From a virus (taxonomy: Duplodnaviria; Heunggongvirae; Uroviricota; Caudoviricetes): 14,373 nucleotides of DNA. Positions 1 through 14,373 of this stretch are shown piece by piece. Position 1 is the stretch's first letter, and each line of letters opens with the position of its first letter. The position numbers and the translations under genes are program-made. Where the stretch lies: the IMG/VR virus record IMGVR_UViG_2541047837_000005, positions 1 to 14,373 of that record; one strand, 5' to 3'. The notes under the pieces were generated by a model that worked only from the letters and a program-made list of their open reading frames with translations, had not been told where the DNA came from and ran no database searches.

Positions 1-219
1 TTACATCCACATAATTTGCTGCCCTGACGGCAACGGGTGCGGCCTTACGGCGTGGACTTCTCCCGGCTTCACGATATATCGCTGTACCGACTCATAAGTG
101 ATGAATGTGGCGCTGCAATTCACGTTCTGACACTGGTGATAACGCTCTTTTGTCGTGTCAGTGATATAGCGACTTGTACGCGCATGTGCGGCATGCTGGC
201 ATAAAGGACAATGAAACAT
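1..219 (-). CDS. ogr: Ogr late-gene transcriptional activator, C4 zinc finger, 72 aa
   Basis: The 93-aa track ORF contains MFHCPLCQHAAHARTSRY...CQNVNC (Cys-x2-Cys-x22-Cys-x4-Cys) from the internal Met at 219; this matches the remembered P2 Ogr N-terminus and length. Stop is TAA at 1-3. Confidence 0.9.
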   Translation of the reverse strand: MFHCPLCQHAAHARTSRYITDTTKERYHQCQNVNCSATFITYESVQRYIVKPGEVHAVRPHPLPSGQQIMWM

Positions 220-253
220 CGCGAGCACCTCTTCCGGTTTTGTTGATGGTGCC

Positions 254-282
254 ATTTTAGTTAATTTATCCTTATAAAACAA
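254..282 (-). promoter_or_regulatory. Candidate sigma70 promoter for ogr (TTGTTT, 17-bp spacer, TAAAAT on the minus strand)
   Basis: Hexamers read by eye in the AT-rich leader upstream of the ogr ATG; no experimental or computational support. Confidence 0.25.
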
Positions 283-300
283 ACAGATAAAACAAAAACA

Positions 301-1263
301 TCACTCATCATCTTCTGTTTCGTACTCCACATCAGAAAGCCTGACCTCAAGCTCCAGGGACGTCGTGAAGCCGCTATTATTCAGAAAATGTGTCACCTTA
401 GTGATTGTCCAGTCCTGCTCGTCTATGACGCGCTTAAAGCCTGACACTTTAACCGGTGTTTCCGTGTAAATATCTGCCCGACCGGTAGCCAGGCTGATGG
501 AGAACTCCGCCACACCCCGTTGCAGTTTATCCCACTTCGCCTGAGCGGCGCGCATGGCCTGCGCTTTCGTGGCATATACCGTAGTCAGGGCAAAAACGTT
601 GTCAGCCTCACCGGCCATGTATTCACCTTCGCGCGCTTCCGGTACTTTAGGCGCTTTCTTCTGCCTGACCGGTTTCGCTTTCGGGTGCTCCAGTGCGCGC
701 AGGTGTTTCTCTTTCTTTTTGCGTTTCAGTTTTACCTTCTGCTTTTGTGGCTTCGGGTCTTTGGTGTGTAACCACTTTGCCGTTACGCCGGTATAGGCTC
801 CACGGTCAGCAATCGCAAAATGATGGCGGTCGCCGTCGCTGCGGGTTATGGTGACCTGCGGGATTTTTTTACCACTGGCCGTCACCCCCTGCCCCGCTTT
901 GAGAAACAACAGTTTTCCCATTTTTACCGACACCTCACCGCCGTTGCGTTCTGCAAGACGGGTCAGGAATTTCGCATCAGACTCCTGCGACTGGTCGATG
1001 TGCGGGATTTTAATTCCGGCCAGTGACGGAGCGACACTAGCTTCCAGCCTGTTAACGGCGCGTTTTGTCGCTTCCGGCCACTTTTCATCCCACCTGTCGA
1101 CCGAAAACGCCCACGCCAGCCACGGCAGCAGATTTGCCGGACAGGTGTCCGGGTTCCACAGTTCACGAATACTGACCGGCGTTTTTTCAATTTCCGCACA
1201 GGCTTTTGCGGCGGCAACTTCAAGCGGTGATGAGCCGGTCGGCAGCAGTCGCGAATCACTCAT
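301..1263 (-). CDS. Chimeric tail ORF: about 70 aa resembling the baseplate protein gpI N-terminus fused in frame to the C-terminal region of tail protein gpD (deletion remnant), 320 aa
   Basis: N-terminus MSDSRLLPTGSSPLE...LWNPDTCPANLLPWLAWAFSVDRWDEKW resembles the gpI family; remainder (IPHIDQ...TITRSDGDRHHFAIADR...LELEVRLSDVEYETEDDE) resembles the gpD C-terminus; length 320 aa versus about 387 for P2 gpD; lies directly upstream of ogr as D does in P2. Confidence 0.6.
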   Translation of the reverse strand: MSDSRLLPTGSSPLEVAAAKACAEIEKTPVSIRELWNPDTCPANLLPWLAWAFSVDRWDEKWPEATKRAVNRLEASVAPSLAGIKIPHIDQSQESDAKFLTRLAERNGGEVSVKMGKLLFLKAGQGVTASGKKIPQVTITRSDGDRHHFAIADRGAYTGVTAKWLHTKDPKPQKQKVKLKRKKKEKHLRALEHPKAKPVRQKKAPKVPEAREGEYMAGEADNVFALTTVYATKAQAMRAAQAKWDKLQRGVAEFSISLATGRADIYTETPVKVSGFKRVIDEQDWTITKVTHFLNNSGFTTSLELEVRLSDVEYETEDDE

Positions 1264-1406
1264 CCGAGCCCCCGGTCACGACGCGGTATTCGGTGCAGAA
1301 AGACGCCTGCGTACTGTTGAGCACAATGTCGGCCAAGCACCTTGCCGACAACAATCAGCACTCCAATCATGAAAAGCGACAGGACGCTTTTTTCTTCTGC
1401 TGTCAT
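1260..1406 (-). pseudogene. 48-aa remnant ORF: holin gpY-like N-terminus (MTAEEKSVLSLFMIGVLIVVGKVL) joined to a short tail that ends in an ATGA overlap with the next ORF
   Basis: Translated by hand from the minus strand (below the ORF-track size cutoff). GGGAG ribosome-binding site upstream of the ATG at 1406; hydrophobic helix typical of a holin N-terminus; TGA stop overlaps the ATG at 1263. Confidence 0.35.
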
Positions 1407-1409
1407 GCG

Positions 1410-1613
1410 TTACTCCCACAGATTGACAGTTTCAGCCACGGGCGCGGTCTGAACGTCGGGCAGTTCGACGGCGGTGCCGTGTGGCAGCACCGCACCCAGT
1501 TCAGCCAGTCCCGGATTTGCGGCGAGCACGGCCTCGACCACGCCCTCAGTGCGCCCGTAATACCGGACACAAATGGCGTCGAGCGTGTCGCCCTGTAGCG
1601 CAAAGGTCTTCAT
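1410..1613 (-). CDS. X: Tail protein X (LysM-like), 67 aa
   Basis: MKTFALQGDTLDAICVRYYGRTEGVVEAVLAANPGLAELGAVLPHGTAVELP from the internal Met of the 90-aa track ORF; ATGA start/stop overlap with L at 1611-1615. Confidence 0.85.
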   Translation of the reverse strand: MKTFALQGDTLDAICVRYYGRTEGVVEAVLAANPGLAELGAVLPHGTAVELPDVQTAPVAETVNLWE

Positions 1614-2122
1614 CAGATTTGACTCACGATGCAGCGCGGCTTGTCCTGGATGCGCGCCACTGCCCAGCGCATATCCCGCCACAGCTCATCAATGGTGCTG
1701 TCAATGCTGTCGGCCTTCTTGTCGCCTTTCGCACTGGCATCCACGCCGCGATAACGCTCATAAAGCGACGCGGTCGCCATCGCACACACGGCGCGCTCGT
1801 AGTAAAAAACTTTGATGCTTTCACCGTCGATGTCGTCCGCCGGGACGTCCGCCAGACGCGTAAAACCGGCGGCAATTTTCTGTTCGCGGTACTCGTACAG
1901 CTCCGCATTCGTCTCCGCCATGCCTGACTTGATGGCCTCACGCAGACGGGCGGGGGCGACGGTCTGCTCAAGGCGCATACGTTCCCGGACGCGCTTCGGG
2001 TCGATATCGGGAAAAAAGAACGTGTTTTTAATCACCGGCTCGTCGCCTGCCGGTTGCGGGATGACCACCGTACCCTCACCGGACACGGGAGCCTCCTTTC
2101 GCGGAATAATCAGCGTCATCAT
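1613..2122 (-). CDS. L: Head completion / capsid stabilisation protein gpL, 169 aa
   Basis: Starts MMTLIIPRKEAPVSGEGTVVIPQPAGDEP at the internal Met of the 189-aa track ORF; length matches P2 gpL; positioned between M and X. Confidence 0.85.
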   Translation of the reverse strand: MMTLIIPRKEAPVSGEGTVVIPQPAGDEPVIKNTFFFPDIDPKRVRERMRLEQTVAPARLREAIKSGMAETNAELYEYREQKIAAGFTRLADVPADDIDGESIKVFYYERAVCAMATASLYERYRGVDASAKGDKKADSIDSTIDELWRDMRWAVARIQDKPRCIVSQI

Positions 2123-2221
2123 GACTACCTCTGAAAAGTCGGGCGGTGGACGCCGGTACAGTGTCAGGTGATTCACCCTCACTGACCGGCGTGCCGCCCT
2201 GGCGCGGGGCGCATTCGGTTG

Positions 2222-2659
2222 TTAACTGGCTTTCTTTTTCGGGCGTCCACGTTTTGCCGGTGTCGCACTCCGGGTCTTACGCGGGGCGCGGGTGGCCGCT
2301 TTGGGCTGCGGCTCCGGCTTCGGTTTCAGCTCCCGCTCCAGTCGTTCAATCTCTTTTTTGACGCCTGCCTGACAGTCGAGCTGTGTCGCACGTTGCAGGT
2401 GAGCCATCAGAATGTCATCCTGTGCACCTTTGCCCTGCTCCAGCACGCCGTTCACCCACGGCAACCAGAACGGCAGCAGTTCGCGTTTTTTCGCGGCCTT
2501 CAGCTCTTTTGAATAAATCGCTTTCAGTGTGCGCTGGTCTGCGGCGAGCTTAACCAGCATCTGCTCATAGACAGTTGCATGTCGCAGCGGGGCGGCTTCC
2601 CGCTGCGCGGTCATCGCTGCCGAGACCCGCATCATGTGGCGCTGTGCGGGACTCGTCAT
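2222..2659 (-). CDS. M: Terminase small subunit gpM-like, internally shortened (145 aa versus about 247 in P2)
   Basis: Ends recognisable (MTSPAQRHMMRVSAAMTAQREAAP at the N-terminus; basic KPKPEPQPKAATRAPRKTRSATPAKRGRPKKKAS tail); position between N and L; about 100 aa shorter than remembered P2 gpM. Confidence 0.7.
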   Translation of the reverse strand: MTSPAQRHMMRVSAAMTAQREAAPLRHATVYEQMLVKLAADQRTLKAIYSKELKAAKKRELLPFWLPWVNGVLEQGKGAQDDILMAHLQRATQLDCQAGVKKEIERLERELKPKPEPQPKAATRAPRKTRSATPAKRGRPKKKAS

Positions 2660-2662
2660 CGG

Positions 2663-3736
2663 TTACGCTCCCGGCTCTGCGGTCGCCTTAGCCGGTGTGG
2701 AGAAATCACCGACCTTAATTTTTTCCACCAGACAACCGGCGGCGTAGTCTTCCACCACGTAATCAATGTTCATTGACTCGTAGTTCTCCACGCGGTCGAG
2801 TTTCGGGTTTTCCTCAATCACGCGGCGATGGCTGTCATCCATGTAGTAGATGGACAGGTTTTCCAGCTTCGTGATGAGCATCGCATCCGCCGGGAAGTAC
2901 GGGACGCGTACCGCCGGCAGGTTACCGATGCGTTTCTGGCTGATGATGACGTCAGCGGCCAGCATTTCGCTGTTGTCCTGCTCCTTGTTGACGATGGGGA
3001 AATATTTGTCCGCCAGCAGCTGACGCCCCACAATCACCACAAGGTCAGGGTCTTCCTGATACCACGGCTCAATCAGGTTGTTGGTCGCATCCATCACCAG
3101 TGCATCGAGGCTGGCATAATCACCGCTCTTACCCACGCGGATGACCTCAGAGGTGGTGTGCCCTTCCTCGTCAGTGACCTTGCTCATCACGCGCGCCGGG
3201 GCTTCATTGCGGTATTTCTGCAGCCAGCCGACCGCCACATCCTGCAGCATCGGATTGCTGCTGCGGTCAGAGGTTTCGGCACGCCTCACGCCGTTAAAAC
3301 CGGCCATGATGAAATCAAGGGACTGGCGTTTGATAATGGCGTTACGGACACGGAGCTGGAAATCCTGATAACGCGCCCACAGGTCCAGCGTTTTGTAGCG
3401 GATATAAAAATCGAAGTTAATCTGGTCGCATTCGTACTTGTTTGACGCCAGCTTCGAGAAGTCCTTCGGCTGACGCTCGGTGCCACCGGCGGTGTCGGTG
3501 GTGCTGGCGATGGAGCCGGTGACACCGATGCCAATTTTTTCCCCTTTCATTTCGCTGACCGGCACAATGTTGATGCGGGTCAGAAAGTCAGAGGACTCCT
3601 GCATGGTGTTCATCAGGGTCTGGGTGACCGACGGTTCAACGGTGAATTTTTTCGACACATCACCGGCGTCGATGCCGTTCAGTTCGGCAACACGGGACAG
3701 GTAAGCATTAAATTTAAAGCGGGTTTCCTGGCGCAT
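2663..3736 (-). CDS. N: Major capsid protein precursor gpN, 357 aa
   Basis: Full-length match in size and sequence character to P2 gpN (MRQETRFKFNAYLSRVAELNGIDAGDVSKKF...); AGGA ribosome-binding site upstream; follows O. Confidence 0.92.
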   Translation of the reverse strand: MRQETRFKFNAYLSRVAELNGIDAGDVSKKFTVEPSVTQTLMNTMQESSDFLTRINIVPVSEMKGEKIGIGVTGSIASTTDTAGGTERQPKDFSKLASNKYECDQINFDFYIRYKTLDLWARYQDFQLRVRNAIIKRQSLDFIMAGFNGVRRAETSDRSSNPMLQDVAVGWLQKYRNEAPARVMSKVTDEEGHTTSEVIRVGKSGDYASLDALVMDATNNLIEPWYQEDPDLVVIVGRQLLADKYFPIVNKEQDNSEMLAADVIISQKRIGNLPAVRVPYFPADAMLITKLENLSIYYMDDSHRRVIEENPKLDRVENYESMNIDYVVEDYAAGCLVEKIKVGDFSTPAKATAEPGA

Positions 3737-3794
3737 AGTTTTTCCTGAAATTAAGGGTTAATCGTGAAGGTTTTCCCGGACTGACTGACGCCGG

Positions 3795-4649
3795 TCAGCA
3801 GTTCGTCATCAGGGCGTCACCGCCACCACCGGTGGCCTTGCTGCGGCGCTGCTGGGTCAGACTTTCGGTGTGGTCGAGACTGTTTTTCAGGCGGGTGAAT
3901 GCCTGGCTGGTTTCATCCGCCCTGTCAGTCACCTCCTGCTTAAGTGCGGAAAAGGCGGTTTCCATCTCAGAGAGGCGCTGCTCAGTGGCGCTCAGTTTTT
4001 CCTGCACATGTTCAGCAACAGCGGTCACCGCTTCATGCACGTCATTCAGACGGGCGTCATCGCTGGCCTGTTTGCGGCCAAAAATGGATTTCACCTTTTC
4101 GGTCAGGGCGGTGAACACGGTTTCAGGCAGGTCTTCAAATTCCAGCTCAACAGGCGTTGCCACTGAAATCAGGTTTTCAGGGCTTAATTTGAAGCGGTTC
4201 AGGGGGTTGTGTTTTGCCGTGCGGCAGAATTCCAGGTATTCCGTGCCGAGGCTTGCCGGGTCATCGGTGACGGCCAGCCCCACCAGATAACATTTGCCGG
4301 TATTGGCAAAGTTCGGCTGAATTTCCATTGAGGTGTAGACTTTCTGCGCGGCCTTGTTCATCGCGATAAGGTCATCGGTCGGGGTGATTTTCGCAAACAG
4401 CGCCCATTTGCCTTTCAGCGCCGAATCGTCGTCAATCTTTTCGGCCTTCAGTTCGACCACATCGCCATAACGTTTAAAAATACCGTCAGGCAGGATGCCG
4501 CGCAGATGTTCCAGGTTAATGCGGCAACCGTAGACACGCGGGTCAAAGGTTTCAGCCATTTCCTGAATATCCTGCGCACTGATGACACGCCCGTCACAGG
4601 TGTCACCCTCAACGCCGATACGAAAGAATTTTGAGACTTTTTTTGCCAT
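3795..4649 (-). CDS. O: Capsid scaffolding protein gpO, 284 aa
   Basis: MAKKVSKFFRIGVEGDTCDGRVISAQDIQEMAETFDP from the internal Met of the 306-aa track ORF; length equals P2 gpO; AGGA ribosome-binding site upstream. Confidence 0.88.
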   Translation of the reverse strand: MAKKVSKFFRIGVEGDTCDGRVISAQDIQEMAETFDPRVYGCRINLEHLRGILPDGIFKRYGDVVELKAEKIDDDSALKGKWALFAKITPTDDLIAMNKAAQKVYTSMEIQPNFANTGKCYLVGLAVTDDPASLGTEYLEFCRTAKHNPLNRFKLSPENLISVATPVELEFEDLPETVFTALTEKVKSIFGRKQASDDARLNDVHEAVTAVAEHVQEKLSATEQRLSEMETAFSALKQEVTDRADETSQAFTRLKNSLDHTESLTQQRRSKATGGGGDALMTNC

Positions 4650-4822
4650 TGTCAGGAGTCCTGAATAGTGATTAGAGGAGTCACATGTCGGCATCAGTTT
4701 CCCGACGATACGCATCCTCCGCCATCAGTCCCGGATGGCTTATCACTGACACAACAGCACCTTAGCGAATCGCGGGGCGCGACTCAGTAGCCTTGCCGTG
4801 TATTCATCACGGCGAGGTATTC
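4650..4822. promoter_or_regulatory. Divergent late-promoter region between O (minus) and P (plus); contains a 7-bp direct repeat AGGAGTC (4654-4660 and 4676-4682) and an inverted repeat CCGTG-N7-CACGG (4794-4812)
   Basis: Intergenic position between divergently oriented late operons, as in P2; repeats read by eye; no clear TGT-N12-ACA Ogr-type site found. Confidence 0.4.
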
Positions 4823-5560
4823 ATGACCATCACCACAGACACCACTCTTTTACACGACCCGCGTCGTCAGGCGGCGCTGCTGTACTGGCAGGGGTTTTCC
4901 GTGCCGCAGATTGCCGCCATGTTGCAGATGAAACGCCCGACGGTGCAGAGCTGGAAACAGCGCGACGGCTGGGACAGCGTTGCCCCCATCAGCCGTGTCG
5001 AAATGAGTCTGGAAGCGCGGCTGACCCAGCTCATCATCAAACCGCAGAAAACCGGCGGTGACTTCAAGGAAATTGACCTGCTGGGACGCCAGATTGAACG
5101 GCTGGCGCGGGTCAACCGCTACAGTCAGACCGGCAACGAGGCAGACCTTAATCCGAACGTCGCTAACCGCAACAAAGGCGGGCGTCGCAAACCGAAAAAG
5201 AATTTTTTCAGTGACGAGGCCATCGAAAAGCTGGAGCAGATTTTCTTTGAGCAGTCTTTCGACTATCAGTTGCACTGGTACACGCCGGAAATGAAAACCG
5301 CAATGGTGCTCAAGGCAAAAGACGTCATCCGCCGTGGCTGTCTGGAATACGACGTCAGCGCCACCGACATCACCAGCTCGTTTATGGCTATCCGCAAGAC
5401 CATGACCAGCAGCGGACGCAGTGCCACCTATGAGGCCAGCCGCAGCGAGGAAGCCAGCCACGCCGACCTCGCCTGGGCGACCATGCACGCCCTGTTAAAT
5501 GAGCCACTCACCGCCGGTATCAGCACCCCGCTGACATCCACCATTCTGGAGTTTTACTGA
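4823..5560 (+). CDS. P: Terminase large (ATPase) subunit gpP-like, internally shortened (245 aa versus about 590 in P2); no Walker A motif seen
   Basis: MTITTDTTLLHDPRRQAALLYWQGFSVPQIAAMLQMKRPTVQSWKQRDGWDS N-terminus after GAGG ribosome-binding site at the internal ATG 4823; stop TGA overlaps the Q ATG at 5560; no GxxxxGK[ST] in the translation. Confidence 0.7.
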   Translation: MTITTDTTLLHDPRRQAALLYWQGFSVPQIAAMLQMKRPTVQSWKQRDGWDSVAPISRVEMSLEARLTQLIIKPQKTGGDFKEIDLLGRQIERLARVNRYSQTGNEADLNPNVANRNKGGRRKPKKNFFSDEAIEKLEQIFFEQSFDYQLHWYTPEMKTAMVLKAKDVIRRGCLEYDVSATDITSSFMAIRKTMTSSGRSATYEASRSEEASHADLAWATMHALLNEPLTAGISTPLTSTILEFY

Positions 5561-6594
5561 TGAGCAAGAAAAAAGGGAAAACACCGCAACCTGCGGCAAA
5601 AAAAATGACCGCCAGCGCCCCGAAAATGGAGGCATTCACCTTTGGTGAGCCGGTGCCGGTACTCGACCGCCGTGACATTCTGGATTACGTCGAGTGCATC
5701 AGTAACGGCAGATGGTATGAGCCACCGGTCAGCTTTACCGGTCTGGCAAAAAGCCTGCGTGCTGCCGTGCATCACAGCTCACCGATTTACGTCAAACGTA
5801 ATATTCTGGCCTCGACATTTATCCCGCATCCGTGGCTTTCCCAGCAGGATTTCAGCCGCTTTGTGCTGGATTTTCTGGTGTTCGGTAATGCGTTTCTGGA
5901 AAAGCGTTACAGCACCACCGGTAAGGTCATCAGACTGGAAACCTCACCGGCAAAATATACCCGCCGAGGCGTGGAAGAGGATGTTTACTGGTGGGTGCCG
6001 TCCTTCCATGAGCCGACACCTTTCGCGCCCGGCTCCGTGTTTCACCTGCTGGAGCCGGATATTAATCAGGAGCTGTACGGCCTGCCGGAATATCTCAGCG
6101 CCCTTAACTCTGCCTGGCTGAATGAGTCGGCCACGCTGTTCCGCCGCAAGTATTACGAAAACGGCGCACATGCCGGATACATCATGTACGTCACCGATGC
6201 CGTGCAGGATCGCAACGATATCGAAATGCTCCGCGAAAACATGGTGAAGTCGAAAGGCCGCAACAACTTTAAAAATCTGTTTCTCTATGCCCCGCAAGGG
6301 AAAGCCGACGGCATTAAAATTATCCCGCTCAGTGAAGTGGCGACGAAGGACGATTTTTTTAATATCAAAAAAGCCAGCGCCGCTGACCTGCTGGACGCAC
6401 ACCGCATCCCCTTTCAGTTGATGGGCGGCAAGCCGGAGAACGTCGGGTCACTGGGAGATATTGAGAAAGTGGCAAAGGTCTTTGTCCGCAATGAGCTTAT
6501 CCCGTTACAGGACAGGATCCGCGAGATAAACGGCTGGCTCGGTCAGGAGGTCATCCGCTTTAAAAACTACTCACTGGACACTGACAACGGCTGA
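5560..6594 (+). CDS. Q: Portal protein gpQ, 344 aa
   Basis: Length and sequence character of P2 gpQ; translationally coupled to P; followed by a terminator and cos. Confidence 0.92.
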   Translation: MSKKKGKTPQPAAKKMTASAPKMEAFTFGEPVPVLDRRDILDYVECISNGRWYEPPVSFTGLAKSLRAAVHHSSPIYVKRNILASTFIPHPWLSQQDFSRFVLDFLVFGNAFLEKRYSTTGKVIRLETSPAKYTRRGVEEDVYWWVPSFHEPTPFAPGSVFHLLEPDINQELYGLPEYLSALNSAWLNESATLFRRKYYENGAHAGYIMYVTDAVQDRNDIEMLRENMVKSKGRNNFKNLFLYAPQGKADGIKIIPLSEVATKDDFFNIKKASAADLLDAHRIPFQLMGGKPENVGSLGDIEKVAKVFVRNELIPLQDRIREINGWLGQEVIRFKNYSLDTDNG

Positions 6595-6599
6595 ACATC

Positions 6600-6621
6600 G
6601 CCGCCTGCGGGCGGCTTTTTT
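6600..6621 (+). terminator. Rho-independent terminator after Q: GCCGCC-TGCG-GGCGGC stem-loop followed by TTTTTT
   Basis: Perfect 6-bp GC stem with 4-nt loop and a 6-T run immediately 3' of the Q stop codon. Confidence 0.6.
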
Positions 6622-6763
6622 ACAACCCGCCATCACGCCCTCACACGCTCACCACCGCACAAAACAGCCCGCATACACACCAACGCCCCGGCGAACAATC
6701 TAAACGCCATCACGACGCGCTCAGACGCTGAAAAAATAAAATCAGCACCACCGCCAGCGCGCA

Positions 6764-6782
6764 GTGCTTTCCCCGCCTCGCC
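6764..6782 (-). other. cos cohesive-end site (19-nt P2 cohesive end GGCGAGGCGGGGAAAGCAC, present as its reverse complement)
   Basis: Exact 19-mer GTGCTTTCCCCGCCTCGCC on the plus strand, about 170 bp beyond Q, where cos lies in P2. Confidence 0.75.
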
Positions 6783-6905
6783 CGCCCGCTTCATGGGTCG
6801 GTTTTAATGCAGGTGCATGACCACCATGGTGTCGCGCCTATTCTGACGGAGCACGATCTAAACTAGCAGCTCCAACGCATGCAAAACAATGCGCCTAATG
6901 CTTGC

Positions 6906-6918
6906 ACATCTGAAAATA
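6906..6918 (+). repeat. Left copy of imperfect 13-bp direct repeat ACATCTGAAAATA flanking the AT-rich cargo
   Basis: 12 of 13 match to 8879-8891 (ACACCTGAAAATA); located at the left edge of the AT-rich block. Confidence 0.3.
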
Positions 6919-7049
6919 AAAATCGTGTAGAAAGATATAGCAAAGTCTGCATATTAAAGCTGGCTGGCACGCAACTCATATCGCAGTGATTTGCCAATTA
7001 CATTGCGCAAAATTTACACTAACAACGGTTATCAAGAAGCAGGCGCAAA

Positions 7050-7060
7050 TTGATTATCAA
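7050..7060. promoter_or_regulatory. Palindrome TTGAT-T-ATCAA in the leader of the MBL-fold gene (candidate operator)
   Basis: Perfect 5-1-5 inverted repeat about 145 bp upstream of the ATG at 7205. Confidence 0.2.
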
Positions 7061-7126
7061 AAACTCGATCTAATCTATTGATCTAGACACGAATATTTAT
7101 GCATCCTGATATTGTTTTAAAGGTCT

Positions 7127-7142
7127 TTGATTGCCTAATCAA
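7127..7142. promoter_or_regulatory. Palindrome TTGATT-gcct-AATCAA in the leader of the MBL-fold gene (candidate operator overlapping a putative promoter)
   Basis: Perfect 6-bp arms with a 4-bp spacer about 65 bp upstream of the ATG; shares the TTGAT half-site with 7050-7060. Confidence 0.2.
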
Positions 7143-7204
7143 GTCCTGCACTACTTTGGCGTACAACACTTACATAAAGTTGAAAACTACAGAAGGGCAC
7201 AAGA

Positions 7205-8290
7205 ATGGGTTACGAAGTTGATTTCTTAGCAGTTGGAGAAAAAAAAAGTGGAGATGCTATCTGCATAAGATGGGGCAACCTCCACGGAACAAGAGCAGAG
7301 CAAAAAGTTGTCGTAATTGATGCGGGGTACGCAAGCACTGGTCCACAAATAATTGAACATTTACAGAAATACTATCATACAAATACTATTGACTTACTCA
7401 TATCCACGCATCCAGATAGCGACCATGCTGGCGGCCTTGAGCATGTGATTGAGAATGCGGAAGTCAAAGAGTTCTGGATTCACCAACCTTGGGAGCATAA
7501 TGAAAATCTCGCGCAGGAATTTGCTGATGGAAGGATAACAGATGCAAGTATTGCCAGACGTATACAAGATAATCTACAAAAAGCCTATGATGCCGTCAAA
7601 TCAGCGAAAAAAAAAGGAATAGAAATTAAGGAGCCTTTTCAAGGCAGGACTTGGGACAATTCTAAACTGGTTGTTATTGGACCAACACAAGCATACTATG
7701 AAACATTAATCCCCGATTTTGCAAGAATGCCTGAAAAAGCAGAAACAACTGCAACCAGTGGTACAGATGCATATAACTACTTTTTTGAGAAAGCCAAAGA
7801 ACAAGTCGAGTATATTGCTGATTGGTTCTCTGATGAGGGAATTGATGACAAGGACACAACTACTGCACAAAACAATTCAAGCGTTATATTAAAAATTGAA
7901 ATTGACAATAAAACACTAGTATTTACAGGTGATGCAGGAATAACTGCATTAGATATGGCTGCTGATCATATAAATAATAACTCATTATCATTTATTCAAG
8001 TGCCCCACCATGGAAGCAGGAGAAACATCGGTCCAGCGGTGCTAAATAAGCTCGTTGGAAATATTGTAAGCGAAGGAGGAAGAAGTGGTGTTTGTGCATT
8101 TATATCATGCGCACCGGATTCCGATAAACACCCTCATCAAGCGGTCATTAATGCTTTTACAAGGCGTGGAGCCAAAGTAGTCGCCACAGAAGGCACCAAT
8201 AAACGCCATTCTAGTAATGCCCCCGCCAGAGATGGCTGGACTGCAGTCACCCCACGCTCATACGCAAGGAGTTATAAGACTGAAGAATAA
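7205..8290 (+). CDS. Metallo-beta-lactamase-fold hydrolase, ComEC/Rec2-like nuclease-type domain, 361 aa; cargo gene
   Basis: Motifs AVGEKKSGDAICI...VVVIDAGY, STHPDSDHAGG (His69/Asp71/Asp73/His74), LVFTGDAG, VPHHGS, and C-terminal HPH...VATEGTN, typical of ComEC-type MBL domains; about 35% GC in sampled lines; GAAGGG ribosome-binding site; position of old in P2. Confidence 0.75.
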   Translation: MGYEVDFLAVGEKKSGDAICIRWGNLHGTRAEQKVVVIDAGYASTGPQIIEHLQKYYHTNTIDLLISTHPDSDHAGGLEHVIENAEVKEFWIHQPWEHNENLAQEFADGRITDASIARRIQDNLQKAYDAVKSAKKKGIEIKEPFQGRTWDNSKLVVIGPTQAYYETLIPDFARMPEKAETTATSGTDAYNYFFEKAKEQVEYIADWFSDEGIDDKDTTTAQNNSSVILKIEIDNKTLVFTGDAGITALDMAADHINNNSLSFIQVPHHGSRRNIGPAVLNKLVGNIVSEGGRSGVCAFISCAPDSDKHPHQAVINAFTRRGAKVVATEGTNKRHSSNAPARDGWTAVTPRSYARSYKTEE

Positions 8291-8295
8291 TTCGT

Positions 8296-8317
8296 TAAGC
8301 TGCCTTAGGGCAGCTTA
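8296..8317. terminator. Hairpin TAAGCTGCC-TTAG-GGCAGCTTA between the convergent cargo genes (candidate bidirectional terminator)
   Basis: Perfect 9-bp stem with 4-nt loop starting 6 nt after the MBL gene stop, AT-rich on both sides; the stop codon of the minus-strand gene lies in the loop. Confidence 0.5.
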
Positions 8318-8793
8318 TTATTAGCCTTACTCACTCTTAATGTAATAAACTTAATTTGCTTAACGTACGACACAATAAAAACAAAAATCAAAAACAATGA
8401 AATCCATTTCGACGCCATGTAATCACCACCAACTACAAACGAAACAAAAAACAAAGAAAACAAAAAAACCAAGGACATAGAGAATAACGTCCTATACATA
8501 TTTGCAGTTTCTTGAAGAAGCTCTATTTTATTATCCTTTCTACATGCTGAGATATATTCCTCATATGGAACAAATTTTACCAGCCCCAAAAATTTCAACA
8601 CAGGCTCAAAAACAATAGACCCAATCCTTCCGATAATTATCCCCGTAAAATAGTAAAGTACCACATTCTTAACAACATCATCTGTGGATAATATCACATT
8701 GGTTGCCCGCTCAAACAAATAAATAAATAAAGCACCGGGAAAGAGATTGTTAAATATATTATAAGACGATATTTTTTCCCATAAACCATCCAT
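8305..8793 (-). CDS. Small multi-pass membrane protein of unknown function, 162 aa; cargo gene
   Basis: Three to four hydrophobic stretches (GALFIYLF; VVLYYFTGIIIGRIGSIVFEPVL; LFSMSLVFLFSLFFVSFVVGG; WISLFLIFVFIVSYV); ATG at 8793 with AAAGGTG ribosome-binding site (the track ORF starts at an upstream GTG); AT-rich. Confidence 0.65.
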   Translation of the reverse strand: MDGLWEKISSYNIFNNLFPGALFIYLFERATNVILSTDDVVKNVVLYYFTGIIIGRIGSIVFEPVLKFLGLVKFVPYEEYISACRKDNKIELLQETANMYRTLFSMSLVFLFSLFFVSFVVGGDYMASKWISLFLIFVFIVSYVKQIKFITLRVSKANNKLP

Positions 8794-8878
8794 ACAACAC
8801 ACCTTTTAACCAATTTTAAAGACGCCATTTTCATCAAAAGAAACAAAAATAGCAAGAACATCAGAACAAACTCTTTGA

Positions 8879-8891
8879 ACACCTGAAAATA
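8879..8891 (+). repeat. Right copy of imperfect 13-bp direct repeat ACACCTGAAAATA flanking the AT-rich cargo
   Basis: 12 of 13 match to 6906-6918; about 90 bp upstream of the membrane-protein start. Confidence 0.3.
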
Positions 8892-8908
8892 TTATGTTCC
8901 GACACCAT

Positions 8909-9061
8909 TCATTTTGTAAAAGCAGAATATCCCAAACACACATCGATTGTAGGATATATAAACGTCTTCCTGCCATATGTTATGGTAGCCCCTCGCGCCA
9001 GCGCCTCAAGCTCCCATCGCTGCGGCCTGATACCGTTCTGAGCAAGGTCAACGCGGATACT
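8909..9061 (-). pseudogene. Possible out-of-frame C-terminal remnant of replication gene A (...IRVDLAQNGIRPQRWELEALARGATITYG...)
   Basis: ORF in a different frame continues directly past the A stop (9048) to 8909 with GC content like the P2 core; assignment to the A C-terminus is from imperfect memory. Confidence 0.3.
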
Positions 9062-10766
9062 CGTTAACGTCATCCGACGGGCTACGGGCGACTCTGACAG
9101 TCTGACAATCGCGCGGAACATTTGCCCCACCCTGCGCGCTGATATACAACGCAAAATCACCACTGTCTGCGGCGGCGCGTGCAGCCTCGACGCGCTCGTC
9201 AAACTCATCAGCAATGCTGACGCCGCGAGGCAATTTGCGTAGTTCACGGTAAGCCCCCATTGTCGGCAGGCCAACCGTTTTAAATTGCGGAATGCGCCAC
9301 GTTGACGCCCATGCGGTAACAGCCGCGGCAGTATCTTTCAGCGGTCTGCCGGTATCGTTATCGAGCTGCCCATCCAGTGCATAGCCGTCGATATTTTTTG
9401 AGATGTATTTCGCGATATACCCCGCAGCACCGCCCCGGTTAAGATGTTTTGCCTGAAAACGGTTTCGCGCGGCTCCTCTTTCGTCGCCATCCTCTTTGAG
9501 CGCATAGCGACGCATGATTTCGATAATCTGGTTACGCTGGCGTGGATTACAAAAAAGCATCATATGCCAGTGCGGCGTTCCGTCGTGGTGTGGCTCGACG
9601 ACACGCAAACCGTAGGCCTGTAAATCATTATCCTTGAATGCCGTGCGCATCAGGCTCCAGATACGGCAGAGATAACGCTGCGCATCCTTTGGATTAAATG
9701 CCTCATCGTTCCAGCCGTGATTAAGCTGAACGGTTTTACTTTCGCCTTTTCCGACCTGACGTGTCGGGTGATACTTTGACGGCGCGGTCAGCGTGATAAA
9801 CATCCCCACATCACCCTCTGCAGCGGCGTAACGCTCAATACCGGCAATGGTGTTCATCAGCTCCATCCGGCGAATTTCAGGATTAGAAATACTGCCCATC
9901 ACCTTACTGATAAGGTCGATGCGCTCGCCGGTTTCCTTATTTTCAAGGTCACACGATTTAAGAAATTCCAGATTTGCCTGGCGGCGTGCACGCACATCAC
10001 GAATGGCATGTTTACTGGCATAAGGAGAACGGTCTTTATTGACCTCCCCGACAGCAATCAGTAACGCCTCATGCCAGCGCATACGCTGGCCTTTAAGCTG
10101 ATGAGTCCACCACTCATCGTTAAACAGACGGGCAATGGCAGAATATGCCTGCCTCGTGGTCATCTGCCCTTTACGGTATTTTTTCCAGTAGAGAGGGGAA
10201 ATATTGAAAGCTCGTGCAGCGCCAGCAACATGACCATACAGGTGAGCCTGCGCCTCATCCGTAAACAGCGATTCTTTCTCGCCATGCGCATCCACCCAGG
10301 CATCGCAGAGTTCCTCATACATCATGAAAAGCTGTGATGAGATACGGGCGGCAAACTTTTTCAGCTCCTTGTCATTCATTCCAGGCAAACGCGCATAATG
10401 GTCACGCTCTGCCAGAAACAGCAACGACGCGTCGGTGTTCATTTCATGGCGCTGATTCACACGCTCAATGCGCGGCCATAAACGACGCTGAAAAGTGGAT
10501 GTGAGGAAATAAAACCCGTGCACCGGGCTTTTATTGCGCCGGATGTAGTCATAGCGTGAAGTAAACAGCGAGCGCAAAAAGTAAGGCAGGCGATTAATCG
10601 TGGATAAAACACCTTGCACCTGACGCATCTCGTCACGTGTAAGGGGTCTTTCGCGCCCGACGGCCTCGCGTGGCGCGTTCCATGCATAAGCACCGGTAAA
10701 CGTCTCACCGGTGCCTGCGGCAAATGCTGACGGAGGGACAAAACGCCCGGAGGCTTTAACGGCCAT
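9048..10766 (-). CDS. A: Rolling-circle replication initiator gpA, C-terminally truncated (572 aa from the ATG versus about 761 in P2)
   Basis: MAVKASGRFVPPSAFAAGTG start at the internal ATG 10766 (the track ORF begins at an upstream TTG); HWHMM metal-binding motif and GYIAKYISK active-site tyrosine pair present; ends abruptly ...SDDVNEYPR. Confidence 0.85.
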   Translation of the reverse strand: MAVKASGRFVPPSAFAAGTGETFTGAYAWNAPREAVGRERPLTRDEMRQVQGVLSTINRLPYFLRSLFTSRYDYIRRNKSPVHGFYFLTSTFQRRLWPRIERVNQRHEMNTDASLLFLAERDHYARLPGMNDKELKKFAARISSQLFMMYEELCDAWVDAHGEKESLFTDEAQAHLYGHVAGAARAFNISPLYWKKYRKGQMTTRQAYSAIARLFNDEWWTHQLKGQRMRWHEALLIAVGEVNKDRSPYASKHAIRDVRARRQANLEFLKSCDLENKETGERIDLISKVMGSISNPEIRRMELMNTIAGIERYAAAEGDVGMFITLTAPSKYHPTRQVGKGESKTVQLNHGWNDEAFNPKDAQRYLCRIWSLMRTAFKDNDLQAYGLRVVEPHHDGTPHWHMMLFCNPRQRNQIIEIMRRYALKEDGDERGAARNRFQAKHLNRGGAAGYIAKYISKNIDGYALDGQLDNDTGRPLKDTAAAVTAWASTWRIPQFKTVGLPTMGAYRELRKLPRGVSIADEFDERVEAARAAADSGDFALYISAQGGANVPRDCQTVRVARSPSDDVNEYPR

Positions 10767-11031
10767 ATGAGCCAAAAGCCTCTGAACAACGCTTGCTGAG
10801 TTGCTCAACCTGCGCGTTTAAATCAGCAAAAGACTTTGCGCTTCCGGTCAGAATATCGTGATGCATCAGGCCGGAAACGAGCTGGCTTAATTTCGGGTAA
10901 TAACCAACCACCGCCAGCCATTCCTGACCGGCGTTTTTACCGCTTTCCGCTCTCTTTTTCTCGTGGAGAATAAACTGAAAGCTGTCACTGGTAACGACAT
11001 AACGTTCGCCAATTTCAATACGAATACTCAT
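10756..11031 (-). CDS. Hypothetical early-operon protein, 91 aa (P2 orf83-like by position)
   Basis: ATG with GGAG ribosome-binding site 8 nt upstream; overlaps the A start by 11 nt; between the zinc-finger ORF and A. Confidence 0.55.
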   Translation of the reverse strand: MSIRIEIGERYVVTSDSFQFILHEKKRAESGKNAGQEWLAVVGYYPKLSQLVSGLMHHDILTGSAKSFADLNAQVEQLSKRCSEAFGSYGR

Positions 11032-11252
11032 GCTGTTCTCCAGTAATGTTTGTTTTTTGCTTCAAAGACTGACTGACAGGAAACACAACGCGTGGCTGAC
11101 GGATAAGCCGCACGACGGGCAGCAGGTATTGGCGCATCACACTCTTCGCAAACCAGCGCAGAAGCACCACAATGTTTTACCCTTGCCGCGTTAATCTGGC
11201 GCTCCAGTAATTCAGCCTGTTGTTCCTGAATAAAATCCACGTTGTCCGGCAT
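11028..11252 (-). CDS. TraR/DksA-type C4 zinc-finger protein, 74 aa (P2 orf82-like)
   Basis: CGASALVCEECDAPIPAARRAAYPSATRCVSCQ gives a CxxC...CxxC arrangement; coupled to flanking ORFs by start/stop overlaps. Confidence 0.65.
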   Translation of the reverse strand: MPDNVDFIQEQQAELLERQINAARVKHCGASALVCEECDAPIPAARRAAYPSATRCVSCQSVFEAKNKHYWRTA

Positions 11253-11554
11253 TACCAGCTCCTTTTGTCGTTCAGTTTCTTAAATTCATCAGCGCAATAG
11301 CTGGTGATTTCTGTCGTTAATTTTGTCAGTTCATCCACGGAGGAAATTTGCTTGTGAAATACAGCGCGTTTAACAAGTAAATTGACCACATCAGACAGGA
11401 GGTTTAATTCACTCTGATAAATCGCGATAACAGATTCAGTTATTTCGCGTTTTTCTTTATCAAGCCTAAGTTGAATAAGAGACAAATCGCCATTTTTCAT
11501 AACGACGATTTTTAAGGCATTGTTCAGTAAAACAACTGAACGAGAACAGGACAT
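11252..11554 (-). CDS. Hypothetical early-operon protein, 100 aa from the ATG (P2 orf81-like by position)
   Basis: Track ORF starts at TTG 11557; ATG at 11554 overlaps the upstream stop by 1 nt; co-oriented within the B-to-A operon. Confidence 0.5.
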   Translation of the reverse strand: MSCSRSVVLLNNALKIVVMKNGDLSLIQLRLDKEKREITESVIAIYQSELNLLSDVVNLLVKRAVFHKQISSVDELTKLTTEITSYCADEFKKLNDKRSW

Positions 11555-11778
11555 CAAAGCACCTCCCCGCGAGACAATCCGATGTTGTGAAATTTTTCCG
11601 ACTCCTGACTGAGCAGCTCGACTATCTCCACGCGGGATAACTCCGCCTTTGTGATGTGGCGAATCATGGCGTCAAGATGAGAAGAAAAGCGCGTCGCAGC
11701 GTCGGCCTGTGCTTCGGTTCTGGCCTGTTGCAGCAGTAATGCGTATTTACCGCACTGATTTTCAGAAACTGTATGCAT
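11554..11778 (-). CDS. Hypothetical early-operon protein, 74 aa from the internal ATG (P2 orf80-like by position)
   Basis: Internal ATG at 11778 has a GGAG ribosome-binding site 7 nt upstream; the track ORF extends to 11811. Confidence 0.5.
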
Positions 11779-11841
11779 GACTTTCTCCAGGCAAAAAGAA
11801 GCCCCGCACAATTAAGTGCGTTAAAAACTCTGGTTAATTAC

Positions 11842-12342
11842 TTAATGCAGATATTGCTCTGGTTTTACCGACGTCAGAATTGTCGGTGCATACTCAAACA
11901 GACTGAATAATTCACGTAATGCACGGAATAAAGCATCACGCCAGTAACATGATTCTTCATTAATTCGCCAGTATGGCTGGTTAAATTCTTTTTCTGTCAG
12001 TCGTGCGTGCATAAATAAAGTGCGACGCTGACTGACTGTTAAAAAACTAATATATGCATACTCACTTGCGCCAACCTGACGGCGTTTTGAGAATGCCCCA
12101 CGCAATTCATCAATTGCACATACCAGTCGTTCACGTTCGACGTCGTTCATTTCTTCAAAACGCATCGTTGCGTGACGCTGTTTTAACTGAGCATGGAAGC
12201 AAACCGTTAACCGTTCGCGCTCCATCATCTGATTATAATAATCACATGTATCCTGCCAGCGAGGAACGGCAAGATGCTTACCAATTATCCGGCGCATAGC
12301 TGCTGGCTGTTTTTCAACGAGATTGAGCGTCATCACTGTCAT
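11842..12342 (-). CDS. B: Replication protein gpB (helicase-loading accessory), 166 aa
   Basis: Length identical to P2 gpB (166 aa); position between the orf78-like gene and the small early ORFs; ATG at 12342 overlaps the upstream stop. Confidence 0.75.
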   Translation of the reverse strand: MTVMTLNLVEKQPAAMRRIIGKHLAVPRWQDTCDYYNQMMERERLTVCFHAQLKQRHATMRFEEMNDVERERLVCAIDELRGAFSKRRQVGASEYAYISFLTVSQRRTLFMHARLTEKEFNQPYWRINEESCYWRDALFRALRELFSLFEYAPTILTSVKPEQYLH

Positions 12343-12575
12343 TTCCAGACCCTCCGGCTTTTCAGAAAGGTCAGAGCCTTTTTTACCGGACTCTGTTTTT
12401 TGGTGCGGATAATGATTCCCTTACGCCCCTTACCGTGGGTGATGGTGAAGTCAATCGCCCTGGGGCTTTCGTTACGCAATAACTGAGCAATACAACGAGG
12501 CTCGTTCATCCTTTCCACCTTAAGCCGCACGGCCATGTCTTGATTTGCTGTAACTAATGCGATTTTTCCAGTCAT
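12339..12575 (-). CDS. Hypothetical protein, 78 aa from the internal ATG (P2 orf78-like by position and length)
   Basis: Track ORF of 86 aa starts at TTG; from the ATG at 12575 the product is exactly 78 aa; lies between cox and B. Confidence 0.45.
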   Translation of the reverse strand: MTGKIALVTANQDMAVRLKVERMNEPRCIAQLLRNESPRAIDFTITHGKGRKGIIIRTKKQSPVKKALTFLKSRRVWK

Positions 12576-12891
12576 GCCATTCTGTCGGAGCTTCATCAAC
12601 TAGCTGGGCTGCGTACTTGTCCCACTCACGGCGATTAATCCATAATTCAGCTTTCCCTCTTGGTTTTAATGGGTCTGTCATGTAGAAGGCTGGCAGCTTT
12701 CCTGCTTTAGCCATTTCAGCCACCGCGCGTGGTGTCTTACCGATGTAAAGAGCAAAACCTTCTTTCGACAGCAAATCAGATGGGCGCTCTGAAATCTGAA
12801 TGCTTTTACGTTTGGCTTCATTTTCGAAACTTGCCTCATCGCTAGTTGGACAAGAAATTTCTACATTTGTCGTCACTTTGCTATCCTCCAT
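12520..12891 (-). CDS. cox: Cox/Apl-like helix-turn-helix excisionase and lytic-switch repressor; ORF is 123 aa, longer than the 91 aa of P2 Cox
   Basis: First gene of the early operon, divergent from C; helix-turn-helix-like segment FALYIGKTPRAVAEMAKAGKLPAFYMTDP resembling the Cox GKLP..MTDP region; ATG at 12891. Confidence 0.6.
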   Translation of the reverse strand: MEDSKVTTNVEISCPTSDEASFENEAKRKSIQISERPSDLLSKEGFALYIGKTPRAVAEMAKAGKLPAFYMTDPLKPRGKAELWINRREWDKYAAQLVDEAPTEWHDWKNRISYSKSRHGRAA

Positions 12892-12984
12892 AAGATTTGC
12901 GATTCACCAACTGGAGCCATCTAGAGCCTTTTTGAGCGAATCACAAATTGCCAAGTAACAATATAATTGGAGATTAGCAAAATT
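12892..12984. promoter_or_regulatory. Immunity switch region between cox and C with repeated GCGA(T/A)TCAC motifs (12899-12907, 12936-12944) and TATAAT at 12962-12967
   Basis: Divergent intergenic region at the expected Pe/Pc position; two copies of a 9-bp motif 37 bp apart; promoter elements read by eye only. Confidence 0.4.
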
Positions 12985-13284
12985 ATGTCAAGTGAACAAA
13001 GTGAGAAACTAAAGCTCATCCGTGAATCCGAACGCCTTAAAACTAAGGAACTTGCTGAATTAATTGGAATTAATTACTACACATATCATGGATATGAATC
13101 AGGAAAATCAAAAATGCCTATGGAAGCAGGTATGAAGCTGTTTAAGCATCCACGCTTTCGCAAGTATCGTGACTGGTTCATGTTTGATGAAACAGATCCA
13201 GCAGCTGGACAAATAGCCCCGGCTCTCGCACACATTGGGCAAGACTCAACAACCTTGCACCACTCAGACCAGAAGACTGGCTGA
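12985..13284 (+). CDS. C: Immunity repressor C, 99 aa
   Basis: From ATG 12985 (the track ORF starts at TTG 12967): helix-turn-helix LKTKELAELIGINYYTYHGYESGKS and C-terminus GQIAPALAHIGQDSTTLHHSDQKTG resembling P2 C; 99 aa as in P2; upstream of int. Confidence 0.8.
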   Translation: MSSEQSEKLKLIRESERLKTKELAELIGINYYTYHGYESGKSKMPMEAGMKLFKHPRFRKYRDWFMFDETDPAAGQIAPALAHIGQDSTTLHHSDQKTG

Positions 13285-13377
13285 CGATTTATTCAGCATA
13301 TGTGTGTAGTAAATGTACGAAAGAAAATTGCATTAATTTTCAAGTAGTAGAAGTAAACAGCGTCATCGGAGGGCTTT

Positions 13378-14373
13378 ATGTCTATTAAAAAGCTCGATGA
13401 TGGTCGTTATGAAGTGGACGTCAGACCGCAGGGTGCAGATGGAAAACGTATCAGGCGGAAATTTAAAACTAAAGGTGAAGCTCAAGCATTCGAACGTCAT
13501 GTACTGGTTAACTACCACAACAAAGAGTGGTTGGAGAAACCAGCCGACCGCCGAACTCTTACAGAGTTGTTAGGCAGATGGTGGATATATCACGGAAAAT
13601 CACATGAGCGTGGAGATATTGAACGGGGGCGTTTAACGACAATAATCGCCAAATTTGCAGAAATGGGAGTGTCCAGAGCTGACCAGCTAACAAAGAAAAC
13701 GATAACTGATTATCGCGTTGTAATGATGAACGATGGTCTGAAACCAGCCAGCGTAAATCGACATCTGGCAATAATGAGCGGGATGTTCACCAAGTTAATT
13801 GACGCCGGTGAATACCACTCTCACAACCCGTTCCGTGAGATTAAACGGTTACGTGAAGCTGTTACGGAAATGGCTTTTTTGTCCAGTGAAGAGATTACGC
13901 GGCTGTTATCCATGCTTGATGGTGATGAATTAAATGCAACTCTGGTCTGCCTTTCTACTGGTGGACGCTGGAGTGAAGTGTCTAATTTAAAAGCTGAACA
14001 CATCATTAACCAGATGGTTACGTTTATGAAAACTAAAAACGGAAAACGCAGGACAATTCCCGTTTCGCAGGACCTGATTAAACGGATCAAGACCAAAAAT
14101 TCAGGCAGGCTTTTTAATGCCAGTTACTACAAAGTGCGTAACGCTCTCAGGGAAGTAAAACCCGATTTACCTGACGGACAAGCAGTACATGTTTTGAGGC
14201 ATACATTTGCCACACATTTTATAATGAATGGAGGTAACATAATCACATTGCAGCGCATCCTGGGTCATTCTAACATTCAGCAAACTATGACCTACGCACA
14301 CTTTGCACCGGATTTCTTACAAGATGCTGTGACTCTTAACCCGGTGTCAGGAATGTCCATAATGCGTCCATAA
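13378..14373 (+). CDS. int: Tyrosine integrase (P2 Int family), 331 aa
   Basis: N-terminus MSIKKLDDGRYEVDVRP; catalytic signature TGGRWSE, HVLRHTFATHF, GHSNIQQTMTYAHF; GGAGGG ribosome-binding site; TAA stop is the last codon of the window. Confidence 0.92.
   Translation: MSIKKLDDGRYEVDVRPQGADGKRIRRKFKTKGEAQAFERHVLVNYHNKEWLEKPADRRTLTELLGRWWIYHGKSHERGDIERGRLTTIIAKFAEMGVSRADQLTKKTITDYRVVMMNDGLKPASVNRHLAIMSGMFTKLIDAGEYHSHNPFREIKRLREAVTEMAFLSSEEITRLLSMLDGDELNATLVCLSTGGRWSEVSNLKAEHIINQMVTFMKTKNGKRRTIPVSQDLIKRIKTKNSGRLFNASYYKVRNALREVKPDLPDGQAVHVLRHTFATHFIMNGGNIITLQRILGHSNIQQTMTYAHFAPDFLQDAVTLNPVSGMSIMRP

Follow-up and report, generated by a model that had tools for sequence, protein, structure and literature searches.

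An in-frame fusion of the P2 tail genes I and D in a multiply deleted prophage of Escherichia coli HVH 209, most likely an accident of prophage decay

The open reading frame at positions 301 to 1263 is, with a probability of about 0.92, an accidental in-frame fusion (I::D) of two P2 tail genes that originated from a microhomology-mediated deletion of about 10.8 kb in the course of prophage decay, and the encoded protein is most likely non-functional. Illegitimate recombination would have joined codon 70 of the baseplate gene I to codon 138 of the hub gene D. Judged from its sequence, the window, i.e. the whole stretch of 14,373 nucleotides that was analysed, is a multiply deleted P2-like (Peduovirus) prophage of Escherichia coli HVH 209, and the fusion is one of the five deletions it carries. 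Between them, these deletions took away the lysis cassette, almost every tail gene, the core of each terminase subunit and the replication origin, so that the prophage is permanently defective.

Alignment of the window with the P2 reference (NC_001895; proteins gpI, NP_046774.1, and gpD, NP_046784.1) yields collinear blocks of 97-98% identity in which the P2 gene order is kept and which are interrupted by five gaps, and a gene-by-gene tblastn comparison agrees with this layout. Genes spared by the deletions (Q, O, N, L, X, ogr, B and orf78-83) are of full length, with 94-100% amino acid identity to P2. Most of Y and most of J are missing, as are K, R, S, V, W, H, G, FI, FII, E, T and U; M, P and A have internal deletions, and ori is gone as well. 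Hence, the element belongs with the P2-like phages except that the complete P2 essential gene set is lacking. The features are given below; all deletion sizes are stated relative to P2, since a parental prophage of the HVH 209 late region was not found (the intact prophage of strain EFF60, described further below, is only 93.6-98.4% identical there), and the true sizes could differ by the variable cargo of the Z/fun and orf30 regions.

1..219, minus strand: ogr, the late-gene activator, 72/72 amino acids identical to P2 Ogr, directly downstream of the chimera
301..1263, minus strand: chimeric open reading frame of 320 aa, gpI(1-70)::gpD(138-387), EQU65680.1, annotated 'phage tail protein I'
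301..1053, minus strand: gpD-derived part, codons 138-387 plus stop (P2 23201/3-23954)
1053..1054: I/D deletion junction, microhomology TA, P2 12404-23202 (10,799 bp) absent
1054..1263, minus strand: gpI-derived part, codons 1-70 (P2 12193-12402/3), in which the start codon and ribosome-binding region native to I are kept
1260..1406, minus strand: remnant open reading frame of 48 aa, codons 1-24 of holin gene Y followed by the 3' end of J out of frame
1334..1335: Y/J junction, codon 24 of Y joined to the last 80 nt of J, microhomology TG, 5,334 bp absent
1413..2122, minus strand: X (67 aa) and L (169 aa), intact
2222..2659, minus strand: terminase small subunit gene M, shortened in frame by an internal 306-bp deletion
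2405/2406: M deletion junction, microhomology TG, 306 bp = 102 codons, in frame
2663..4649, minus strand: N (major capsid, 357 aa) and O (scaffold, 284 aa), intact
4823..5560, plus strand: terminase large subunit gene P, shortened in frame by an internal 1,035-bp deletion
5279/5280: P deletion junction, microhomology TA, 1,035 bp = 345 codons, in frame
5560..6594, plus strand: portal gene Q, intact
about 6764-6811: joined cos ends, after Q
7205-8290, plus strand: cargo at the P2 old/tin position, MBL-fold protein (PADLOC PDC-M48 B, E = 6e-99)
8305-8802, minus strand: cargo at the P2 old/tin position, small membrane protein of 162-165 aa (PDC-M48 A, E = 7e-49)
9048..10766, minus strand: replication gene A, truncated by a frameshifting 422-bp deletion; gpA ends after about 570 residues
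9058-9060: A deletion junction, microhomology GTA, 422 bp, frameshift
10759..14373: intact early region with orf83-orf78, B, a Cox-family gene, an HTH repressor and a tyrosine integrase

The frame of the chimera stays open for 320 codons before it meets its stop, and it contains the motif LWNPDTCPANLLPWLAWAFSVDRWDEKW. In direct protein comparison, residues 1-70 match P2 gpI 1-70 at 70/70 positions and residues 71-320 match P2 gpD 138-387 at 250/250 positions. A preliminary description of this DNA had proposed that about 70 N-terminal residues are gpI-like and that the remainder resembles the C-terminal part of gpD, and both assignments hold. Beyond that description, the two halves turn out to be identical rather than just similar to the P2 proteins, and the fusion proves to be one deletion among five. 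BLASTP against the P2 proteins places gpI at residues 1-72 (71/72 identical, E = 7e-50) and finds the chimera identical to gpD without a break from N138 to the C-terminus (E = 0.0). No single family covers the frame from end to end; instead, two partial Pfam domains are found. Tail_P2_I (PF09684) occupies aa 7-70 (E = 5.8e-24; 85 bits against a gathering threshold of 20.6) and covers profile positions 1-64 of 139, corresponding to residues 1-70 of the 176 aa of gpI. Phage_GPD (PF05954) follows at aa 72-297 (E = 3.9e-20; 72.7 bits against a threshold of 30.1) with profile positions 109-304 of 305, corresponding to gpD residues 138-387 of 387 aa. Both domains thus pass their thresholds and both are incomplete. 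Agreement of this extent is well outside what chance would give.

Compared with P2, the whole chimera carries 23 nucleotide differences, and every one of them (23/23) is synonymous. This pattern points to purifying selection acting while the parental genes were still functional, rather than to decay or adaptation after the fusion. Hence, nothing has changed in the chimera since the fusion took place, and its divergence from P2 predates that event.

The junction itself was located by DNA comparison, in which window positions 1-1054 correspond to P2 24254..23201 and positions 1053-1335 to P2 12403..12121. Thereby, the break that had been expected near nucleotide 1053 is placed at 1053/1054. Read on the P2 strand, GCGCCGTTA is followed directly by ACAGGCTGG, the dinucleotide TA being common to both parents, so that microhomology of 2 nt is present at the I/D junction. 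In addition, the flanks show an imperfect six-base likeness on the window plus strand (TTACGG in D, TAACGG in I). Between the two joined segments, the remainder of I is missing, together with H, G, the Z/fun region, FI, FII, E/E', T, U and codons 1-137 of D. Loss of the genes between I and D with the frame left open, as suggested in the preliminary description, is thus borne out by one scar of 10,799 bp relative to P2, and this scar is compatible with one step or several. The reading frame was kept because the shared T falls on a third codon position in both genes. As an open frame across such a junction has a prior of 1 in 3, it needs no special explanation.

The other four deletions are of the same appearance. 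The Y/J deletion takes Y beyond codon 24, then K, lysA, lysB, lysC, R, S, orf30, V and W, and finally most of J, and the remaining three lie within M, P and A. Microhomologies at the five junctions amount to 2, 2, 2, 2 and 3 nt, and filler bases occur at none of them. For random blunt joins, and assuming equal base frequencies, the probability of at least 2 nt is 0.156 per junction and about 9e-5 for all five. Microhomology of at least 2 nt at 5/5 junctions therefore points to microhomology-mediated illegitimate recombination, either by replication slippage or by end joining. An open frame was kept by three of the five deletions (I/D, M and P), slightly more than the expected one third and not significantly so (binomial P of at least 3 of 5 = 0.21). 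The deleted P gene retains its N-terminal HTH/Terminase_5 and C-terminal Terminase_6C parts according to precomputed Pfam annotation. With the annotated ori nick site (P2 29892) deleted and gpA cut short, the HVH 209 prophage would be unable to replicate.

Expression of the chimera can be considered from what is left around it. The pO/pP control region lies just beyond N-O and is kept in a block 98% identical to P2. A terminator scan of the minus strand from pO to the chimera returned one weak site, at 4310-4293 inside O. At the far end of this stretch, the TGA of the 48-aa Y'-J' remnant overlaps the ATG of the chimera (ATGA, 4 nt). The chimera would be transcribed solely as the end of an O-N-M'-L-X-Y'-I'::'D late operon, by read-through from the Ogr-dependent promoter pO. 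The P2 late operon needs Ogr, and Ogr in turn depends on replication. Since ori and the C-terminus of A are lost, expression of the fusion would probably require an activator brought in by an infecting P2-like phage or P4; under normal conditions, the chimera is thus probably silent.

By exact-sequence look-up, the chimera was identified as a protein of E. coli HVH 209 (4-3062651), encoded on scaffold KE700922.1 of assembly GCA_000459235.1. The prophage lies between pflA and pflB, and its ogr side abuts pflB-focA-ycaO. Clustering of about 15 billion proteins at 90% identity puts the chimeric protein in a cluster by itself, and it has one NCBI accession, from one strain. Neither the I/D nor the Y/J junction was found in 5,426 complete E. 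coli genomes (0/5,426), and the Y/J-type junction pattern AAGGTGNTTNGCCGACATYGTGCT gave 0 matches in IMG/VR viral contigs. The classical defective P2-like prophage of E. coli B was considered as a possible identity of the element and rejected, as the junctions occur in no complete RefSeq E. coli genome and also because the chimeric protein is placed in HVH 209. A junction from a draft scaffold raises the question of a mis-join within or between P2-like prophages in a short-read assembly, all the more as E. coli genomes often carry several such prophages (positive genomes have a median of 3 matching places). However, the chimeric protein is also encoded on a Logan contig of run SRR958405 that was assembled separately, and window positions 1-11263 are present base for base both in this contig and in the NCBI scaffold. 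Furthermore, the joined segments share just 2 nt, whereas mis-assemblies span long repeats, and all five junctions are clean and collinear. An assembly artefact is therefore the least probable of all explanations considered here, with hardly any likelihood left to it.

The age of the deletions can be judged from an intact P2-like prophage in E. coli EFF60 (NZ_CP086678.1 257873-287864), which likewise resides between pflA and pflB and shares integrase, immunity genes and cargo with HVH 209. Unlike the HVH 209 element, it possesses complete I, H, G, FI-U, D, Y-J, M, P and A. Over window positions 9058-14373, the two differ at 1 of 5,316 positions (99.98% identity), and the EFF60 A gene is 422 bp longer and holds the stretch deleted in HVH 209. 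In the late genes, EFF60 is mosaic relative to the window, as reflected in the lower identity range given above; late modules have been exchanged between P2-like prophages with near-identical early regions. The near-identity of the early region to that of an intact prophage suggests that the HVH 209 element was a working phage until recently and that its deletions are recent. Taken with their distribution, the sequences mark the five deletions as young and strain-specific.

As an alternative to successive independent deletions, all five junctions might have arisen at once in a single replication-based, serial template-switching event of the MMBIR/FoSTeS type. The five collinear forward skips with microhomology of 2-3 nt and without point-mutational decay between them are in line with this, as is the early region that is 99.98% identical to an intact prophage, and the retained J'-I' island between the two largest deletions measures just 283 bp. 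Yet stepwise loss under selection against lysis and induction would lead to the same result, between one and several deletions of this kind are found elsewhere in the P2-like prophages of other strains, and the inversions, templated insertions and duplications that often accompany template switching are missing. A one-event origin is thus unlikely, though it has clearly more in its favour than any other alternative discussed here.

Two strains with independent deletions of this kind, E. coli SW071614 and EF7-18-58, deserve a direct comparison. In both, non-homologous deletions with microhomology of a few nucleotides have removed lysis and tail genes and kept the head genes and ogr. In contrast to HVH 209, their end points differ and no I::D fusion is formed, and HVH 209 has five deletions at once. 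SW071614 carries a deletion from lysozyme gene K to J, while EF7-18-58 carries one from Y to J at P2 6944/11799 and has also lost P and the 5' portion of Q. In EF7-18-58 (9586-9608, 13523-14275), there are several internal deletions, and a reverse-transcriptase gene adjoins the prophage. Multiply deleted P2 remnants are hence not unique to HVH 209. The P2 remnant of E. coli K-12 consists of ogrK and a D fragment and may go back to the same kind of deletion. The fusion is accordingly another case of an already known class of prophage deletions and does not constitute a new one. Deletion is the usual route of prophage degeneration (PMC6379469), and the literature searched yielded general accounts of prophage decay and no description of this I::D fusion.

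One end point does coincide between strains. The Y/J deletion of HVH 209 (P2 6788/12123) and the K/J deletion of SW071614 (P2 7196/12123; junction at 9278-9281 of the compared locus) share their J-side end, P2 12122/12123, to the nucleotide. In the window, CGGCAAGGTGCTTG adjoins GCCGACAT at this place; in SW071614, CGGCGAAGGTGTTTA adjoins GCCGACAT, and this left flank resembles that of the window. Outside SW071614, its K/J junction was found in none of the complete E. coli genomes. The J'-I' fragments of the two strains are about 97% identical, which, together with the restriction of each junction to one strain, makes shared recent ancestry unlikely. In Y, the break falls within the 3' arm of a hairpin with 7 perfect base pairs (z = -2.4 versus shuffles), and in K it borders on a weaker one (z = -1.8 versus shuffles), and folding of the J region is no better than that of shuffled sequences (z about 0). 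These values hint at a possible tie between the hairpin structure at Y and K and the position of the breaks. It is possible that P2 gene J contains a recurrent break point, i.e. a deletion hotspot, or that a two-step deletion proceeded via an imperfect repeat.

Apart from phage genes, the prophage holds two cargo genes matching the candidate defence system PDC-M48, and both are intact in an otherwise dead prophage. The MBL-fold protein is annotated as a member of the ComEC/Rec2 family in RefSeq, and the pair occurs at an identity of at least 98.9% in 21 complete E. coli genomes. A 2026 survey described defective P2-like prophages with intact defence genes (PMC13586616), and the HVH 209 locus fits this description because the PDC-M48 pair is intact in a defective P2 element.

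As to a function of the hybrid protein, comparison with its two parents is instructive. With P2 gpI it shares residues 1-70, the start codon and the upstream 3' end of J, but it is devoid of residues 71-176 (profile positions 65-139) and is not followed by the tail-fibre gene H. Likewise, residues 3-69 align to residues 2-66 of Tri2 of the R2-pyocin (PA0619, PDB 6u5b), the structural homologue of gpI. With P2 gpD it shares the sequence from residue 138 onwards, the same stop codon and ogr as the next gene, whereas the N-terminal 137 residues (profile positions 1-108) as well as the upstream gene U and the whole F operon are absent. To Tri2 and to the R2-pyocin homologue of gpD (chain 6u5h_C), the chimera aligns in part only. 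Because gpI has lost its last 106 residues and gpD its first 137, and because none of the assembly partners V, W, J, H, FI, FII, E, T and U is left, the hybrid protein is very probably a non-functional by-product.

A beneficial role would require that the fusion, perhaps along with the in-frame-deleted P and M, was retained as useful, e.g. as a dominant-negative baseplate or hub fragment directed against superinfecting P2-like phages or P4 satellites. Incoming Ogr or Delta would then switch on the remnant pO, and the I::D decoy would block tail assembly; if true, the decayed prophage would provide abortive interference beside its PDC-M48 cargo. Several features could be read in this way: the frame is open, the native start is kept, the 4-nt overlap would allow translational coupling, the operon is switchable by phage Ogr or P4 Delta according to established P2 late-gene regulation, there are zero amino acid changes relative to P2, and the intact candidate defence system means that the locus may be under selection. 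However, the open frame is adequately accounted for by its 1/3 prior and the absence of nonsynonymous change by the recent date of the deletion, while a protein that is a singleton in databases and a junction that is found in no complete genome give no sign of spread or retention. Moreover, the hub profile is missing positions 1-108 of 305, the gpI part covers less than half of its profile, and a search of the PADLOC-DB defence models with the chimera gave 0 families at E values of at most 0.01. Retention of the fusion for a useful function is accordingly highly improbable, and the decoy mechanism proposed for it is equally so.

If the fusion is, as favoured here, an accident of prophage decay, the name 'phage tail protein I' hides a remnant of two fused genes, and a pseudogene flag is due. 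The fusion as such is of little importance beyond correct annotation. The locus, in turn, would represent a clean and datable case of the grounding of a P2-type prophage, in which deletions proceeded without point-mutational decay and head genes, ogr and a candidate defence system were spared.
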